Source: a virus
Virus record (IMG/VR): IMGVR_UViG_3300043036_000143
Strand: one strand, 5' to 3'
Length of the DNA: 38,123 nucleotides
In this document: in pieces, positions 996 through 13,664 of the stretch
Position numbering within the stretch: the first letter of the stretch is position 1
Layout of the letters: the number at the start of each line of letters is the position of its first letter
Position numbers and translations under genes: made by a program
Notes under the pieces: model-generated
What the model was told of the DNA's origin: nothing
Database searches by the model: none
The model's input: the letters and a program-made list of their open reading frames with translations, nothing else

Positions 996-1043
996 TCATC
1001 ACAACACAACACAACACACCATAACTTGAATATACTCTTGAAC

Positions 1044-1787
1044 ATGAAAACTACCACTGTAAAAACACAAGCAAGAAATGAAAAGCGCGATCTACTCACA
1101 AGTGAGAATGCAAAGACAAGCAAGGGAGAAAACCTAGGCTTTCTCACTGGCATTCTCTACCTTGCGCCCGCCAATGAGAGCGGAAAAAACACCTGCCCTT
1201 TTGCGTCGACTGGTTGCGCTGCCGCTTGTCTATTTACGGCTGGGCGCGGGGCATTCGATAGCGTGCGGGAAGCGAGACTAGCTAAGACGTATTACCTATG
1301 GCAAGGCGTGAGTCACTTTGTGGACAATCTCGAGTTTAATATCCATGCCCTAGAACGGAAAGCTAAGCGTGAGGGATTAACTCCATGCGTGAGACTAAAT
1401 GGTACAAGTGACTTACCATGGGAAACAATGAAAGGAAACAAGAAAAAATCGATCATCGCGCTTTTCCCTCACGTGCAGTTTTATGATTATACTAAAAATC
1501 CATCACGCATGAAAAAATACCTACGCGGAGAGATGCCCGCCAATTACCACCTTACATTTTCACGTTCGGAATGTAATCATGAAACATGTCTTGAGATTCT
1601 CGAGATGGGCGGGAATGTTGCCGCCGTATTTGAAAAGATGCCGGAAATATGGTGTGGAAAAGAAGTAATTTCCGGGGATGATCACGATTTAAGATTTTTA
1701 GACAAAACTGGAGTAGTGGTAGGATTAAAAGCTAAGGGAAAAGCTAAAAAAGATCTCTCCGGTTTCGTGGTATCAGCCAATGATTAA
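1044..1787 (+). CDS. GP88-family-like protein with N-terminal Cys cluster (function unknown)
   Basis: The track ORF 1026..1787 starts at TTG. The first ATG (1044) follows the (ACAAC)n leader at 998-1025. Motifs TSKGENLGFLTGILYLAP, CPFASTGCAAAC, NGTSDLPWE and GDDHDLRFLD were recalled from memory as Pfam GP88-like. Confidence 0.7.
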   Translation: MKTTTVKTQARNEKRDLLTSENAKTSKGENLGFLTGILYLAPANESGKNTCPFASTGCAAACLFTAGRGAFDSVREARLAKTYYLWQGVSHFVDNLEFNIHALERKAKREGLTPCVRLNGTSDLPWETMKGNKKKSIIALFPHVQFYDYTKNPSRMKKYLRGEMPANYHLTFSRSECNHETCLEILEMGGNVAAVFEKMPEIWCGKEVISGDDHDLRFLDKTGVVVGLKAKGKAKKDLSGFVVSAND

Positions 1788-1800
1788 ATTATAAAAATTA

Positions 1801-1850
1801 GCCACTGAAGAGCCTCCAGGCATGAGGCGAAACGCCGCAAGGCGTATGGC
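1801..1850 (+). ncRNA. Type I hammerhead ribozyme HHR-1 (predicted cleavage between 1846 and 1847)
   Basis: Sequence parses as GCCA / CUGAAGA / GCCUC-CAGGCAU-GAGGC / GAA / ACGCC-GCAA-GGCGU / A / UGGC. The full invariant core is present, with 5-bp stem II, 5-bp stem III capped by a GNRA loop, and an open stem I. Confidence 0.9.
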
Positions 1851-1867
1851 AATGCCAATAGAACAAT

Positions 1868-2077
1868 ATGAACACAATCACTACTCAAAAAGCAATTCGC
1901 GCCCAATTTTGGGCATCTCACCCAGATCTTGAAGCTCACGCGCTTATGTGGAGCATCAAGACAGCTCCGCAAAATAGACACAACACAGACACGCGCACGG
2001 CGTTTTGTGACTATGTCGATTCCCTTGCCAAGTCTGGCATGATCTCCGAAAAACTAGCGTCACGCGCTACCTTGTAA
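1868..2077 (+). CDS. Hypothetical protein
   Basis: 69-aa ORF. Its ATG lies 21 nt downstream of the HHR-1 cleavage site. Confidence 0.65.
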   Translation: MNTITTQKAIRAQFWASHPDLEAHALMWSIKTAPQNRHNTDTRTAFCDYVDSLAKSGMISEKLASRATL

Positions 2078-2104
2078 AACAATACAACACAACACACAGA
2101 CAAA

Positions 2105-2356
2105 ATGAAAACTACTATTACAAAATCAGCAGCCATCAAACACGCTCGCCAAAACGTATCCTCACTGTCAATCTTTGGGGGGCAATACAGATTCGCAACC
2201 TACGACGCGAAAATGAACGCATGGTGGGAGCATGTCCCGAAACAATTCCATGCTGCCGCTTTCGACCGCTCGCAGGCACTTATTGATGCCGCCCGTGACT
2301 ATCTCGATTTGCCATGCGTGCAATATGACGGCGGCGCATGGATCGACTATGTTTAA
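2105..2356 (+). CDS. Hypothetical protein
   Basis: 83-aa ORF. The ATG is preceded by the CA-repeat leader acaacacaacacacagacaaa. Confidence 0.7.
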   Translation: MKTTITKSAAIKHARQNVSSLSIFGGQYRFATYDAKMNAWWEHVPKQFHAAAFDRSQALIDAARDYLDLPCVQYDGGAWIDYV

Positions 2357-2393
2357 ACCACACTACCACAGAAACCGTACACAGCATAAAACT

Positions 2394-2588
2394 ATGATCA
2401 CAGGAAACATGCAAATTTCAAACACAGAAAGCTTTCTTCATTCATGCAAACTTGCCATCTCGCATGAATTTAAAACGCGCCATTACAAGGCAATCGGGCT
2501 TTACACTCCAACAGAAAACGTGCGCGATGCAATCGCCATCATTCGCAGAATTCAGCCTAAAAACATCACCAAGCAATCCAAACCATGA
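2394..2588 (+). CDS. Hypothetical protein
   Basis: This is the distal part of track ORF 2232..2588. The ATG at 2394 is the first start downstream of the preceding gene, and the stop overlaps the next ATG (ATGA). Confidence 0.5.
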   Translation: MITGNMQISNTESFLHSCKLAISHEFKTRHYKAIGLYTPTENVRDAIAIIRRIQPKNITKQSKP

Positions 2589-2731
2589 ATACACCAACTT
2601 GCTCACTCGTCCGCCGTCCCATCCGCCGCAATCCATGGCGGAAATGGATCACCACCACCGCTGAAATCATCGGGGGAGTCCTCACGATTGCTCTACTTGT
2701 AACACTCACCCTCCTGTCCTTAGCACTATGA
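2585..2731 (+). CDS. Small membrane protein (48 aa)
   Basis: Hand translation gives MNTPTCSLVRRPIRRNPWRKWITTTAEIIGGVLTIALLVTLTLLSLAL, a basic N-terminus plus one hydrophobic helix. It has ATGA overlaps at both ends and is below the track length cutoff. Confidence 0.5.
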   Translation: MNTPTCSLVRRPIRRNPWRKWITTTAEIIGGVLTIALLVTLTLLSLAL

Positions 2732-2901
2732 CCACATTCACAGCACTATCCCAGCGCATCCGCGCCGCCGTATCCACTGCCGATCTCAAAGCTTTAGAAA
2801 AGCGATGTGATAGGCACTATGAGGCAGGCACTATCACACCGAGCGAGTTTTCCCGCTTAGATGGAATGATCATGGAACGCATCGCATTACTGAACCAATA
2901 A
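2728..2901 (+). CDS. Hypothetical protein (57 aa)
   Basis: Hand translation gives MTTFTALSQRIRAAVSTADLKALEKRCDRHYEAGTITPSEFSRLDGMIMERIALLNQ. It is ATGA-coupled to the upstream ORF. Confidence 0.5.
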   Translation: MTTFTALSQRIRAAVSTADLKALEKRCDRHYEAGTITPSEFSRLDGMIMERIALLNQ

Positions 2902-2926
2902 AACACAACACAACACAAATAAGGCT

Positions 2927-3244
2927 ATGATAACAATAACACAGAAAGATTACACAATCCTGCAGAAAATCGCCGAAAAAATTAATTCTGAAATCAAAGC
3001 TTACAATGAGGCTCATGATGTCGTCCACCAAGTCATTTCCGTCAGCGTAAGCCAGGACGATGATTTCATCGATCATTATGCGTATTTTGACATCGAAACA
3101 TTCAAAACCCACAGCTCGGATGAAGAATCATACGTCCATGATGCCATACGAGGCATTGCCAGACAACTTACCGATGCACTTATCACTGACACGATCGTAA
3201 GCTCTGGAGATGGGATCTTCACGGCGGTCTATAAGCTCATATAA
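2927..3244 (+). CDS. Hypothetical protein
   Basis: 105-aa ORF following the CA-repeat leader aaacacaacacaacacaaataagg. Confidence 0.7.
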   Translation: MITITQKDYTILQKIAEKINSEIKAYNEAHDVVHQVISVSVSQDDDFIDHYAYFDIETFKTHSSDEESYVHDAIRGIARQLTDALITDTIVSSGDGIFTAVYKLI

Positions 3245-3262
3245 CCCACTATCACGGAAGCC

Positions 3263-3445
3263 ATGAATGAAATCATAATTGACGAGCTTTATATCGCTCT
3301 CAGCGTATTAGAGCAACGAGAAATTGACCTCGCCATGCTAGGCAGGGTAGAGCATAGAAACGCCGTGAGACTGGCAATGCTGCCGATCAAACGAGAAATC
3401 AACAAGCTTGAGAATAGAGAAATTTACCCTGAAACAAGCCACTGA
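3263..3445 (+). CDS. Hypothetical protein; stop codon lies inside the HHR-2 core
   Basis: 60-aa ORF ending ...ETSH-TGA. The TGA at 3443-3445 is U4-G5-A6 of the ribozyme. Confidence 0.6.
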   Translation: MNEIIIDELYIALSVLEQREIDLAMLGRVEHRNAVRLAMLPIKREINKLENREIYPETSH

Positions 3446-3485
3446 TGAGCCTCCAGGCATGAGGCGAAACCCTGCGGGGTCTGGC
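3438..3485 (+). ncRNA. Type I hammerhead ribozyme HHR-2 (predicted cleavage between 3481 and 3482)
   Basis: Sequence parses as GCCA / CUGAUGA / GCCUC-CAGGCAU-GAGGC / GAA / ACCC-UGCG-GGGU / C / UGGC. It has the canonical GUC cleavage triplet and a UNCG-type loop on stem III. Confidence 0.92.
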
Positions 3486-3519
3486 AAGAGCCAAATAACA
3501 CAACACAACACAAGACAAG

Positions 3520-3795
3520 ATGCAAACGATAACAGGCAATACATACCCCGTAAAAGAAGCCATAAAGGCACTAGGCGGAAAATGGAACAAACTAGCCAAG
3601 GGCTGGGATGTTCCCGACGAGGTAGCAGATGAAGCGCGCGCCTTAGTCTCAGGCTCGCCAAGCCGTAGCATTAGCCACAGCTATGATAAAACCACATTTT
3701 ACCGCATGAACAGCGGAGCGGTGATTTACCGCAACAGATCTGGTATGTGTGAAGATGCGCCATGCTGCGGCTGCTGCGGCACAGATAGCCACTGA
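3520..3795 (+). CDS. DUF5710-like N-terminal domain protein with Cys-rich C-terminus; stop codon lies inside the HHR-3 core
   Basis: GNTYPVKEAIKALGGKWNKLAKGWDVP resembles, from memory, the N-terminal module seen on phage replication proteins. The C-terminus is CEDAPCCGCCGTDSH. The TGA at 3793-3795 is U4-G5-A6 of HHR-3. Confidence 0.7.
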   Translation: MQTITGNTYPVKEAIKALGGKWNKLAKGWDVPDEVADEARALVSGSPSRSISHSYDKTTFYRMNSGAVIYRNRSGMCEDAPCCGCCGTDSH

Positions 3796-3838
3796 TGAGA
3801 TCCAGGCAAAGATCGAAACGCCCTGCGGGGTGTATGGC
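3788..3838 (+). ncRNA. Type I hammerhead ribozyme HHR-3 (predicted cleavage between 3834 and 3835)
   Basis: Sequence parses as GCCA / CUGAUGA / GAUC-CAGGCAAA-GAUC / GAA / ACGCCC-UGCG-GGGUGU / A / UGGC. The core is intact, and stems II and III differ from HHR-1 and HHR-2 by compensatory changes. Confidence 0.9.
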
Positions 3839-3857
3839 ACAAGCCAACTCAAAATAT

Positions 3858-4100
3858 ATGATACTATACCAGAAAACAGAAGACCCCCTTGTAATTGTAA
3901 CAGATTCCAAAACGAAAGACGTTGAGACTAAAAAACTCACTGGCACTTATTTTCGGATCATTCCCCCCGCAAATGATCGCGTGAATTGGGTGTTAACTTG
4001 CTCAGAAATGCACGTTGACCGATGGGCAAGCGCAACAGATTCCACCATGATCATTTCCGAGAATCTAAGAAAACAACTTGTCTCTTTATTCTCATGCTGA
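3858..4100 (+). CDS. Hypothetical protein
   Basis: The upstream part of track ORF 3795..4100 runs through HHR-3, and the ATG at 3834 spans the cleavage site. The first ATG after cleavage is 3858 (MILYQKTEDPL...). Confidence 0.6.
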   Translation: MILYQKTEDPLVIVTDSKTKDVETKKLTGTYFRIIPPANDRVNWVLTCSEMHVDRWASATDSTMIISENLRKQLVSLFSC

Positions 4101-4411
4101 TCGACAACAAAATCGCGCTGATACAATCCGTTGCTGATGTCCTCGGGGTGAAACCTGAAGCTATCACTGGCAAGCGCAAACGGTTCGCTGAGGCTCTCGC
4201 CAGGCAAATCGTGATGACGTTGTGGAGTGAAGCACACTCGCTCCAGGACTCAGCCGAAATCGTAAACCGAACCCATCACACCGCAGCATTTTACGCACGT
4301 AAAAAGACTTATGAACGCTTGCACTATTGTAAGAAGTCAAAAGAGCGAATGCATAAGATACTGCAAAGATACTCAGAAATTATTCTTGAACAAACCGAAA
4401 CAAACCACTAA
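4094..4411 (+). CDS. DnaA domain-IV-like (Bac_DnaA_C-like) DNA-binding protein
   Basis: IALIQSVADVLGVKPEAITGKRKRFAEALARQIVMTLWSEAHSLQDSAEIVNRTHHTAAFYARKK follows the DnaA C-terminal HTH pattern (GK-R...AR...M......S...I......HT.V..A..K). Confidence 0.65.
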   Translation: MLIDNKIALIQSVADVLGVKPEAITGKRKRFAEALARQIVMTLWSEAHSLQDSAEIVNRTHHTAAFYARKKTYERLHYCKKSKERMHKILQRYSEIILEQTETNH

Positions 4412-4459
4412 AAAAACTCTTGTGCGGGAAATTCCGCACTATCACAACACCAAAATACA

Positions 4460-5038
4460 ATGCAATTAGAACACAGCACACCTGAATTGTTTACTGCCCT
4501 AGCAAAAATGCAGGGAGAAGTAGAAAACGCCACAAAAGGCTCGCTAAATCCACATTTCAAATCGAAATATGCGGATCTTGCGGAAGTCTTGAACACCGTG
4601 CGCCCAGTATTGGCAGCAAATGGACTATCAATCATACAGTCGCCCTCATTTGACGGTGCTATTTGCCACGTTACCACCACAATCGCCCACAGCGGTGGAG
4701 GGTATATCTTCGGCACTATGTCCTGTGTCCCTGCGAAAATGGACGGGCAGGGCGTAGGAGCGGCAACAACCTACCTTCGACGCTATTCGCTCGCCGCAGT
4801 CTGTGGAGTTGCCCAGGAGGACGATGACGGACAATCGGCAGCGCATAATCGCCCCGCAGTCTATCCGCTCATTTCCAGTGGTGAAGCTGCCAGAATTCGC
4901 GAAAACATCGAAGCTCTTGCTATCGACGAACCAGCATTCCTGAAACATTACGGAGTTACGGCAGTCGCACAGCTAACCACTGACAAAATCGCCAGCATCG
5001 ATAAAGCATTTGCAATCAAAGCTAAAGCAAAACCATGA
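4460..5038 (+). CDS. erf: ERF-family single-strand annealing protein
   Basis: ALAKMQGEVENATKGSLNPHFKSKYADLAEVLNTVRPVLAANGLS and TTYLRRYSLAAVCGV are typical ERF motifs. The gene is ATGA-coupled to the exonuclease gene. Confidence 0.85.
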   Translation: MQLEHSTPELFTALAKMQGEVENATKGSLNPHFKSKYADLAEVLNTVRPVLAANGLSIIQSPSFDGAICHVTTTIAHSGGGYIFGTMSCVPAKMDGQGVGAATTYLRRYSLAAVCGVAQEDDDGQSAAHNRPAVYPLISSGEAARIRENIEALAIDEPAFLKHYGVTAVAQLTTDKIASIDKAFAIKAKAKP

Positions 5039-8436: not shown

Positions 8437-8464
8437 GACGTATGGCAGACGTATGGCAGACGTA
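8437..8464. repeat. 11-bp tandem repeat GACGTATGGCA, 2.6 copies
   Basis: Copies at 8437-8447 and 8448-8458, with a partial copy at 8459-8464. The repeat lies immediately upstream of the 18-nt box. Confidence 0.85.
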
Positions 8465-12793: not shown

Positions 12794-13083
12794 AAAAGAG
12801 AGCTAAGAGAGCGAGCGATGAAGGGTTCAGTATGATTTGCGGCAGACCGAGACACAAGCCGTGGGAGCAAAAGGCTACGATTGTCCTGCGCTTGTCACAG
12901 GAAACATATCAGCGTATCAGGCGGTTATCGTCGCACAGGAGGTGCAGCGTAAGCCAGGCGGCAGAGTTACTCATGCGCACGGAGGAATCTGAGAGGATCG
13001 AGCCGACAATGCCGATTGACTACTCATTCCTAGAAAAGAAAGGCAACAGCTACACAGTATTAGACATTCTTAATTTACCATGA
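12790..13083 (+). CDS. Possible ribbon-helix-helix protein
   Basis: ATIVLRLSQETYQRIRRLSSHRRCSVSQAAELLM fits a strand-helix-helix pattern. The gene is ATGA-coupled on both sides. Confidence 0.55.
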   Translation: MKKRAKRASDEGFSMICGRPRHKPWEQKATIVLRLSQETYQRIRRLSSHRRCSVSQAAELLMRTEESERIEPTMPIDYSFLEKKGNSYTVLDILNLP

Positions 13084-13664
13084 ACACACTAAGAGGATTT
13101 CCCAAACGATACGAGGATGCCCCGCCAGCGACAGGTGACGGATGGTTGGCAAACTATGCCAAAGCACTCGCCACAACCGATTCTGGGGGCATTACGATCC
13201 TTTACGGAGGATATGGCACAGGCAAGACACGCATGGCTTGGGAGGTGGCTAGGGCGCATAAGTCCAAGCGTCCAACAATCAGTAATGGTGGCATTGGATG
13301 GACGACAAGCACGAAGAAACGCCCGATGGTTTACACCACAGCGGTGAACTTGTTCTCAACGATCAAATCCACTTATACTTCTGGATCTGGCAAATCAGAA
13401 AAGGAAGTTGTATCGGATTACTGCGAAGCTGCACTGCTGGTGATAGATGAAGTCCAGGAGCGTGGGGAAACACAATACGAGGATAGACAGCTAACCGCTA
13501 TCATTGATGCGAGATACGCCGCAGATATGCCGACGATCCTGATTTCCAACTATACATGGGAGAGATTAGCATCTACGCTATCTCCAGCTGTGATTGATCG
13601 GATCGAGGAGAACGGGGCGAAACTACTATTCAACTGGGAATCATTTAGAACCAAAACAAAATGA
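13080..13664 (+). CDS. DnaC/IstB-like AAA+ ATPase (helicase loader)
   Basis: Walker A GGYGTGKT and Walker B LLVIDEV are present, with sensor-like PTILISNY. The size and context fit a phage replication module. Confidence 0.8.
   Translation: MNTLRGFPKRYEDAPPATGDGWLANYAKALATTDSGGITILYGGYGTGKTRMAWEVARAHKSKRPTISNGGIGWTTSTKKRPMVYTTAVNLFSTIKSTYTSGSGKSEKEVVSDYCEAALLVIDEVQERGETQYEDRQLTAIIDARYAADMPTILISNYTWERLASTLSPAVIDRIEENGAKLLFNWESFRTKTK

Follow-up and report, generated by a model that had tools for sequence, protein, structure and literature searches.

Where a gene ends inside the catalytic core of a ribozyme, the question arises whether the overlap couples translation to RNA cleavage or reflects the packing of a compact genome. 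Such a locus is found in the window analysed here, a 38,123-nt stretch of viral DNA (IMG/VR record IMGVR_UViG_3300043036_000143). An earlier note, made from the sequence alone, had read positions 3438-3485 as a hammerhead ribozyme (HHR-2) containing the stop codon of the upstream ORF 3263-3445, and had proposed that a terminating ribosome would unfold it, giving a possible coupling of translation to cleavage. It appears fairly probable that the region 3438-3493 acts as a type I self-cleaving hammerhead, predicted to split the early operon into gene-sized mRNAs, with the stop overlap as a by-product.

A type I hammerhead family in the early region of an uncultured phage

HHR-2 (3438-3485, + strand) is a complete type I hammerhead, for which self-cleavage is predicted from the sequence. 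On rereading the window, the parse given in the earlier note was reproduced base for base. The elements follow one another in the order stem I 5' strand, core, stem-loop II, GAA, stem-loop III, H17 and stem I 3' strand. The 5' strand of stem I (GCCA, 3438-3441) pairs with its 3' strand (UGGC, 3482-3485) and leads into the core strand C3-U4-G5-A6-U7-G8-A9 (CUGAUGA, 3442-3448). This is followed by stem-loop II (GCCUC/GAGGC with the loop CAGGCAU, 3449-3465), the core strand G12-A13-A14 (GAA, 3466-3468) and stem-loop III (ACCC/GGGU with the loop UGCG, 3469-3480), which is closed by the pair A15.1-U16.1 (A3469-U3480). Both core strands occupy invariant columns in the alignment of relatives (alignment A1), and both stem-loops show compensatory changes. 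The loop II triplet GGC (3456-3458) is invariant in the family, being present in 74 of 74 contexts, and loop III fits the UNCG type to which it had previously been assigned. From the hammerhead consensus, the cleavage site is predicted between C17 and U1.1 (3481/3482), in agreement with the earlier assignment. Hammerhead chemistry leaves a 2',3'-cyclic phosphate at the end of the 5' product and a 5'-OH at the start of the 3' product. Four nucleotides past stem I lies a conserved tail, GCCA (3490-3493, + strand), to which the functional unit very probably extends. The tail is followed by the CA-rich leader of ORF 3520-3795 (3494-3519, + strand), which is predicted to be unstructured and is devoid of a Shine-Dalgarno sequence.

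With regard to class, HHR-2 contains the whole conserved hammerhead core (C3 U4 G5 A6 N7 G8 A9, G12 A13 A14, A15.1-U16.1 and an H17 other than G), and none of these positions varies among 55 aligned relatives. The three helices each present a core-adjacent pair, namely G3449-C3465 (10.1-11.1), A3441-U3482 (2.1-1.1) and A3469-U3480 (15.1-16.1). Stem I is open and stems II and III are closed by loops, which is the type I topology. The minimum free energy (MFE) structure of the 48-nt element is the hammerhead fold. The folding energy itself is ordinary for the base composition (z = -0.06).

Two sister copies accompany HHR-2, so that the motif script finds three complete type I hammerheads in the window, all on the + strand (1801-1850, 3438-3485 and 3788-3838), co-oriented within a few kb and flanking phage genes. 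HHR-1 (1801-1850; 72.4 bits with the family covariance model) has the core CUGAAGA and a predicted cut at 1846/1847, and is followed by the spacer AAU and a GCCA tail at 1854-1857 (unit 1801-1857). HHR-3 (3788-3838; 79.7 bits) has an A at H17 and a predicted cut at 3834/3835, and is followed by the spacer ACAA and a GCCA tail at 3843-3846 (unit 3788-3846).

The window is a phage genome encoding Erf, an exonuclease, the large terminase, a major head protein and tail proteins, together with GP88-like and DnaA-C-like proteins. The three ribozymes are located in the early region of the + strand, among the genes for the GP88-like protein, Erf and the exonuclease. Their host genome is that of an uncultured podovirus-like phage. 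The closest isolate by protein similarity is phage C75C1, with about 54% amino-acid identity, whose genome is without a copy of the ribozyme. More distant relatives of the capsid protein are found in the Methylophilales phage Venkman and in the Bruynogheviruses. Shine-Dalgarno sequences are absent across the whole phage, including the leaders after the ribozymes, and their absence downstream of the ribozymes is therefore not special.

The gene upstream of HHR-2, ORF 3263-3445 (+ strand, stop TGA 3443-3445), encodes 60 amino acids without a Pfam match. It has four orthologues with 80-98% amino-acid identity (L133, L265, L139 and L123), and third codon positions differ most among orthologues, clearly so for ORF 3520-3795 and modestly for ORF 3263-3445. 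An independent JGI annotation calls the ORF identically (contig Ga0377191_000250, metagenome 3300036945). On the strength of the orthologues, the codon-position bias and the matching call, ORF 3263-3445 is a real gene. Downstream, ORF 3520-3795 (+ strand, 91 amino acids, stop TGA 3793-3795) is the single gene bracketed by HHR-2 and HHR-3.

The three strict pattern matches in the window compare with 0.00 expected from 100 dinucleotide-preserving shuffles. Nevertheless, a search of the window with Rfam at gathering thresholds returned no hammerhead (RF00163, RF00008, RF02275, RF02276, RF02277). At relaxed thresholds, a local match to Hammerhead_HH9 (RF02275) was obtained at 3438-3485, with 19.7 bits against a gathering score of 52, while Hammerhead_1, Hammerhead_3, Hammerhead_II and HH10 had no listed match at E <= 10, overlaps within the same clan having been collapsed to the best. 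These low scores are a failure of the curated models and not of the definition of the hammerhead class. A family covariance model was built from relatives after the Rfam search had given no hammerhead above threshold, and with this model the three window copies score 72-80 bits (E about 1e-20), the next best match reaching 13.8 bits.

Relatives were collected by pattern scans, the motif script and the model. A first scan of viral contigs, tied to the loop sequence, was too loose and returned 120 mostly unrelated loci; a second pattern worked. More than 70 distinct copies were found, often two to four on a relative's contig, and all in uncultured viral and metagenome contigs. No match was detected among GenBank phages by megablast of window positions 1000-5000 or by blastn of the ribozyme, and no family member was present in 185,579 representative genomes searched by a pattern scan followed by the motif script and the covariance model. 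The 70 pattern matches in the representative genomes, many of them in Comamonadaceae, were rejected as chance or coding matches, none of which passed the motif script or the model.

The members of the family share one layout, which consists of a stop codon, the 48-nt ribozyme, the conserved tail, a leader of about 10-25 nt and a start codon. All copies are co-oriented with the flanking genes, and the ribozyme fills the intergenic gap. Near-identical ribozymes follow at least 40 unrelated upstream gene families. In the model-based alignment A2, 98.3% of cells pair, and 157 cells carry double-sided changes compared with 42.7 +/- 5.6 in shuffles, a value reached in 0 of 500 shuffles; such changes affect 8 of the 14 pairs. 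When the partners are slid against each other as a control, pairing falls to 22-44%. Because alignment A2 was fitted to the model, it is biased towards pairing, but the raw motif list displays the same changes. Pairs in stems II and III switch freely among CG, UA, AU and GC with compensatory changes, while the unpaired core is invariant, a combination which is the signature of a functional hammerhead rather than of a plain hairpin.

Short stem I, loop II and the conserved tail

Unlike stems II and III, stem I hardly varies. It is nearly always the 4-bp helix GCCA/UGGC, and change is limited to the core-adjacent A-U pair, which is replaced by G-C or G-U in 7 of 80 aligned sequences. The tail is similarly constant: of the 102 strict matches to the type I hammerhead in the scanned loci, 91 have GCCA, which in the family stands 2-4 nt after stem I. 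Moreover, each of the 74 family contexts has both the GGC of loop II and the GCC of the tail. More distant hammerheads mostly have neither element; among the exceptions, L226 and L217 have a GCC tail without the loop GGC, and L266 has the loop GGC and a mutated tail. A relative whose stem I has 6 bp (L033) is also without both elements, which fits a stabilising role for tail-loop pairing beside a short stem I.

Two partners are available to the tail, namely the GGC of loop II, in a pseudoknot of 3-5 bp, or the UGGC strand of stem I, in a 4-bp hairpin. The pseudoknot would be a contact between the regions of stem I and stem II, such as natural hammerheads make through loop-loop, loop-bulge or pseudoknot interactions. 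The pairings of the tail were tabulated by script, as MAFFT and model-based alignments misplace the tail when the length of the spacer varies. The core of the candidate pseudoknot consists of three base pairs between GGC and GCC, triplets whose complete invariance leaves no covariation to measure. At the neighbouring y-y' position, pairing is seen in 48 of 74 contexts, compared with about 59% expected, which supports the pseudoknot weakly. With regard to the hairpin, it is present in the MFE folds of HHR-2 and HHR-3 when the tail is included. A nearest-neighbour model that ignores tertiary contacts puts the hairpin and stem I folds close together in energy: the hairpin is favoured in 50 of 73 sequences, and the median difference is -1.2 kcal/mol on its side. 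Owing to this slight preference, the ribozyme might act slowly or under regulation instead of constitutively. The two pairings may also follow one another, the pseudoknot forming in the uncut RNA and the hairpin on the 3' product once it is released.

Position of the upstream stop codon

The overlap that first drew attention to the locus is borne out by the sequence. The TGA of ORF 3263-3445 (3443-3445) corresponds to U4-G5-A6 of the core, and the last two sense codons, AGC and CAC (Ser-His), supply the 5' strand of stem I; in the frame of this ORF, the core CUGAUGA reads TGA TGA. A second overlap, absent from the earlier note, occurs at HHR-3, where the TGA of ORF 3520-3795 (3793-3795) likewise forms U4-G5-A6. 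At HHR-1, ORF 1026-1787 shares its frame with the core TGA and ends 13 nt ahead of stem I.

A survey of 74 distinct contexts, in which the longest upstream open frame was taken as the gene, revealed that these arrangements are variable. The upstream stop is the core UGA in 29 contexts, directly adjoins stem I in 13 (as TAA or TGA at -3, or as a TAG overlapping one base), stands 2-37 nt ahead of stem I in 27 and is unclear in 5. Altogether, the stop lies in the core, adjoins stem I or stands at most 13 nt upstream in 63 of the 74 contexts. The core stop is used by 14 of 40 upstream gene families (about 36%), and of the 15 gene families represented more than once, 6 combine different arrangements. 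For instance, orthologues of ORF 3520-3795 end either as ...GTDSH* in the core or as ...CCS*, with a TGA or TAA just 5' of stem I (L138 and L130).

The core stop can also outlive the ribozyme. In three relatives (L009, L032 and L258), the core TGA is the ordinary stop of the ORF 3520-3795 orthologue within a ribozyme remnant, GCCACTGATGAGATCC. The remnant in these loci and in L136 has lost the 3' strand of stem II, GAA, stem III and the cut site; in L136, the TGA has become TTA and the ORF continues for one codon to the second TGA. In L009 and L032, the remnant is followed by an extra gene and then by a complete ribozyme, and a 16-nt direct repeat of the 5' half of the ribozyme flanks the insert. 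Furthermore, the tandem stop UGAUGA (N7 = U) is not enriched among the users of the core stop, with 19 of 29 compared with 30 of 45 otherwise.

These results speak against the proposal that the overlap is a purpose-built coupling of translation and cleavage, since the stop position varies among orthologues, the stop persists in a dead remnant and the tandem stop is not enriched. A translation-coupled RNA switch requires a conserved position of the stop relative to the structure, and the positions found are spread over the core, the border of stem I and sites farther upstream (29, 13 and 27 of 74, with 5 unclear). In the comparative sequence data, nothing indicates that selection keeps the exact overlap in place. 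It is best explained by compaction and a ready-made stop codon, rather than by a conserved regulatory device. As CUGAUGA always supplies a UGA in one frame, an upstream gene in that frame ends in the core. The other two frames run far into or through the ribozyme, their first stops being reached 22 to 310 nt from where stem I starts, and genes in them need a stop of their own ahead of stem I. The price for the genes that end in the core is a C-terminal tail of two residues (Ser, Arg, Cys or Gly followed by His), which is Ser-His in 22 of 29.

The frequency of in-frame genes comes near to what random frames would produce. Of the 74 contexts, 40 have an upstream gene in the frame of the core UGA; weighted by family, the figure is 18.2 of 35 compared with 11.7 expected (binomial p = 0.02), a modest excess over random frames. 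This excess fits joint inheritance and exchange of genes and their 3' ribozymes, and a pure by-product model accounts for it only through the shared ancestry of gene-plus-ribozyme units.

Proposed transcript processing, rival readings and related systems

In line with the work of Perreault et al. and later reviews, the most likely function of the ribozymes is to cleave the polycistronic early transcript so that gene-sized mRNAs result. Each would fold while the transcript is being made, with the 4-bp stem I probably reinforced by the short pseudoknot between the GGC of loop II and the GCC of the tail, and would then cut after H17 (3481/3482 in HHR-2). The upstream mRNA would keep its stop codon and gain a structured 3' end, made up of stems II and III and the cyclic phosphate. 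The downstream mRNA would start with a 5'-OH, possibly followed by a 12-nt hairpin (UGGC-N3-4-GCCA) and then by a short, unstructured, CA-rich leader. From the predicted cut to the AUG, the distance is 21 nt at HHR-1, 38 nt at HHR-2 and 23 nt at HHR-3; the median of the family is 21 nt. The operon would thereby be divided into gene-sized mRNAs, with each translation start insulated from the upstream neighbour. In a compact mosaic genome, an upstream ORF in the right frame would simply run on to the core UGA, at the cost of the two-residue tail. Clustered prophage hammerheads flanking genes cleave in vitro and in E. coli, and pseudoknots between stem I and stem II are common among them, rapid cleavage being dependent on these contacts (Perreault et al. 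2011; PMC3088659). In a 2019 review, the leading proposal for the hammerheads of bacteria and phages is that they process polycistronic transcripts.

A direct role for the ribosome would give the overlap a different meaning. Given the size of the ribosome footprint, a ribosome at the HHR-2 stop would be expected to extend over the 5' strands of stems I and II and the core between them. In 57 of 74 contexts, the stop is either the core UGA or no more than about 12 nt ahead of stem I, and a ribosome terminating there would cover part of the ribozyme. By hiding GCCA, it could leave UGGC to pair with the tail and hold off cleavage, in which case cleavage and the fate of the downstream gene would depend on the level of upstream translation. 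The nearly isoenergetic competitor hairpin and the modest enrichment of upstream ORFs in the frame of the core UGA are consistent with such gating, as is the near-invariance of GCCA, the loop GGC, UGGC and the tail GCCA beside the free variation of stems II and III, which a partner swap would require. However, this gating seems unlikely, as the stop position is not conserved among orthologues, the stop stands 14-37 nt upstream of stem I in about 15% of contexts and the tandem stop is not enriched where the core provides the stop. A stop codon close to the next element is in any case expected in a compact phage genome, and a terminating ribosome stays only briefly compared with typical hammerhead cleavage times. 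It is also quite unlikely that the four invariant short elements constitute a balanced partner-swap switch, tipped by a ribosome terminating on or beside the core. The active state of such a switch would combine stem I with the pseudoknot between loop II and the tail, and its inactive state would be the hairpin between UGGC and the tail. If this were true, the ribozymes would read upstream translation and set the fate of the downstream mRNA, as natural ribosome-gated ribozymes.

The ribozyme could, in addition to or instead of a role at the RNA level, mark the border of exchanged gene-plus-ribozyme units, its roughly 50 nt serving as a homology patch for recombination and its in-frame core stop travelling with the gene. 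The inserted gene between the 5' remnant and a complete ribozyme in L009 and L032, with its 16-nt direct repeat, points in this direction, together with the comparable remnants after the same gene in L258 and L136, the near-identical ribozymes behind at least 40 unrelated gene families and the excess of ORFs in the core UGA frame, which fits co-inheritance of gene and ribozyme. Conversely, all clear remnants follow an orthologue of ORF 3520-3795 and may trace back to one or two events, and the kept catalytic nucleotides and the compensation in stems II and III show selection on the RNA fold rather than merely on DNA homology. Recombination as the role of the element is doubtful, and it is compatible with transcript processing. 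It is very improbable that the ribozymes serve to circularise or splice RNA, with the 5'-OH UGGC end docking into the GCCA and core of the next ribozyme and being joined by the reverse reaction or by RtcB, for instance to yield a 353-nt circular mRNA of ORF 3520-3795 (3482-3834). This possibility has been raised for clustered phage hammerheads (PMC3088659), and it would suit the invariance of the stem I sequence across copies within a genome and across the family, and the bracketing of a single gene by HHR-2 and HHR-3. Nevertheless, circular or spliced products were sought in other clustered hammerheads and none was found (PMC3088659), a 4-bp stem I is a weak docking site, and the stop codon would still lie inside the circle, with no obvious coding advantage. 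Finally, a chance match or ordinary intergenic hairpins, such as terminators or RNA-stabilising stem-loops, would agree with the scores of the curated Rfam models below gathering and with the ordinary folding energy of the 48-nt element. Such an origin is nonetheless extremely improbable, considering the three matches against none expected in shuffles, the absence of a U-tract after the stems and the invariant unpaired core next to covarying pairs, where simple hairpins would show the opposite.

Phage hammerheads that cluster between genes and make tertiary contacts by base pairing were already described in 2011. As in those described by Perreault et al. (PMC3088659), co-oriented copies within a few kb bracket single genes or short blocks in phage DNA, and the proposed role is the processing of long phage transcripts. 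A pseudoknot connects the regions of stem I and stem II in those hammerheads, and a candidate for the same kind of contact is present here. The present family differs in its invariant 4-bp stem I, in the small size of the candidate pseudoknot, with three invariant base pairs, and in the tail, which can fold back on the UGGC strand of stem I instead. With Hammerhead_HH9 (RF02275), HHR-2 shares the type I topology, the same core and the local alignment over 3438-3485, whereas the long stem I of HH9, with an internal loop that contacts loop II, is absent in HHR-2.

A parallel can also be drawn with RiboJ, said to go back to Lou et al. in 2012 and reportedly an engineered hammerhead insulator derived from sTRSV, which stays on the downstream mRNA. 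Like RiboJ, the present hammerheads are placed just upstream of a gene, where cleavage would remove the upstream RNA and leave a 5'-OH and a small hairpin before the start. Unlike RiboJ, their type I topology would leave the ribozyme on the upstream fragment, and insulation is only presumed. A hammerhead with a pistol-like fold, in which a 6-bp pseudoknot takes the place of helix II, was reported in 2024 (Nat Commun; PMC11300833). Its core is stabilised by a pseudoknot helix in place of contacts between loops, and the same may apply to the present family. However, helix II is here a normal hairpin of 4-6 bp to which the candidate pseudoknot of 3-5 bp would be an addition, and the different topology rules out that the two forms are identical.

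The Bruynogheviruses, to whose capsids the capsid protein of the window is distantly related, include phage PaP3. A hammerhead has been found in an intergenic region of PaP3, and the report that describes it makes no mention of stop codons inside the core, the term 'stop codon' occurring 0 times (PMC3088659). No description of the family itself, of its invariant short stem I with a tail that can serve two pairings, or of genes that repeatedly take the core UGA as their stop was found in PMC3088659 or in later reviews. A large, coherent family from uncultured phages, which standard Rfam annotation misses, can now be added to the clustered phage hammerheads known since 2011. Its compact layout makes it a convenient natural system for the study of gene insulation, mRNA stability and the response to translation. 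With regard to genome annotation, the built-in UGA of the hammerhead core repeatedly serves as the stop of a gene. Additionally, an AUG lying across the cut site of HHR-3 has been annotated as a start codon, which is likewise of relevance to annotators.

Remnants and a different hairpin behind the ORF 3520 orthologues

In several of the viral and metagenome contigs recovered by the pattern scans, the orthologue of ORF 3520, the 91-aa gene that lies between HHR-2 and HHR-3 in the window, is followed by only part of a ribozyme. On the minus strand of locus L009 (12290-12740), the orthologue ends in a hammerhead remnant, GCCACTGATGAGATCC, beyond which the sequence is unrelated. The orthologues of L032, L258 and L136 likewise terminate in a hammerhead remnant, those of L258 and L136 being comparable. 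In L009 and L032, the remnant is followed by an additional gene of about 107 aa (displayed for L009) with a complete hammerhead at its end, and thus a 16-nt direct repeat, corresponding to the 5' half of the ribozyme, brackets the insert. The remnants, together with the direct repeat around the inserted gene, point to recombination inside the ribozymes. Two further loci, L137 (4931-5010) and L229 (about 240-330), have no complete hammerhead behind the orthologue and present instead a different GC-rich hairpin, CAGGCGGGGGAAAAATCCCCTGCC, with repeated CCACTATCA motifs.

Disabled copies and hammerhead-like matches

Seemingly disabled family copies were found in L300 (about 1817-1886), L139 (5976-6039) and L075 (6715-6783), with defects among them that comprise a C3-to-G change in the core (GCCAGTGATGAG), deletion of the CUGAUGA strand and a mismatched closing pair of stem II. 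Judging from these copies, ribozymes evidently decay as well as spread in the phages concerned. Within the window, the top sub-threshold match to the family covariance model is found at 13166-13231 (+), with 13.8 bits. This segment contains GCCAC...UAUGGCACAGGCAAG and is possibly a decayed hammerhead copy; it lies inside ORF 13080-13664, has no catalytic core and is probably a chance match. A scan of representative genome contigs with a loose hammerhead pattern returned matches of about 50 nt (L143-L212) in many Comamonadaceae (Limnohabitans, Polaromonas, Rhodoferax) and Chloroflexota genomes. These were rejected as hammerheads, as none has the hammerhead fold or matches the family model, and their recurrence across the genomes suggests conserved coding sequence.

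Gene starts and leaders

Nucleotides A17, U1.1 and G1.2 of HHR-3, the third hammerhead of the window, form an ATG across its cut site (3834-3836), and the JGI gene call lets the following gene begin there, giving 88 aa. Because the predicted cleavage of HHR-3 would destroy this ATG, translation more likely begins at the conserved start at 3858, giving 80 aa. Several early genes have a CA-repeat leader (ACAACACAAC...), located at 1000-1025, 2900-2926 and 3497-3519 in the window, and such leaders are also found in many relatives. Even under lenient matching, a Shine-Dalgarno-like sequence was detected for only 3 of the 26 window genes checked, and therefore the host probably initiates translation without Shine-Dalgarno pairing.

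An abiF motif and tandem repeats in the window

The minus strand at 8329-8365 matches the Rfam abiF RNA motif (RF03085) with 41.8 bits (E = 1.8e-4), which exceeds the gathering score of 37. Only one copy of the motif is present, and the phage early genes lie on the other strand. It may be a mimic, carried by the phage, of an RNA from a defence system, or a hairpin that arose by chance. An 11-nt tandem repeat, GACGTATGGCA (2.5 copies), lies nearby at 8437-8464. Close to the window's left end, at 560-599, the CT-rich unit CTCTCTCTCTTG is repeated in tandem in about 3 copies. This repeat overlaps two ORFs of the minus strand (335-895 and 534-758) and lies upstream of the early genes on the plus strand, which start at about 1026. 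Along with two more short tandem repeats at 224-270, it may represent regulatory or origin-like sequence.
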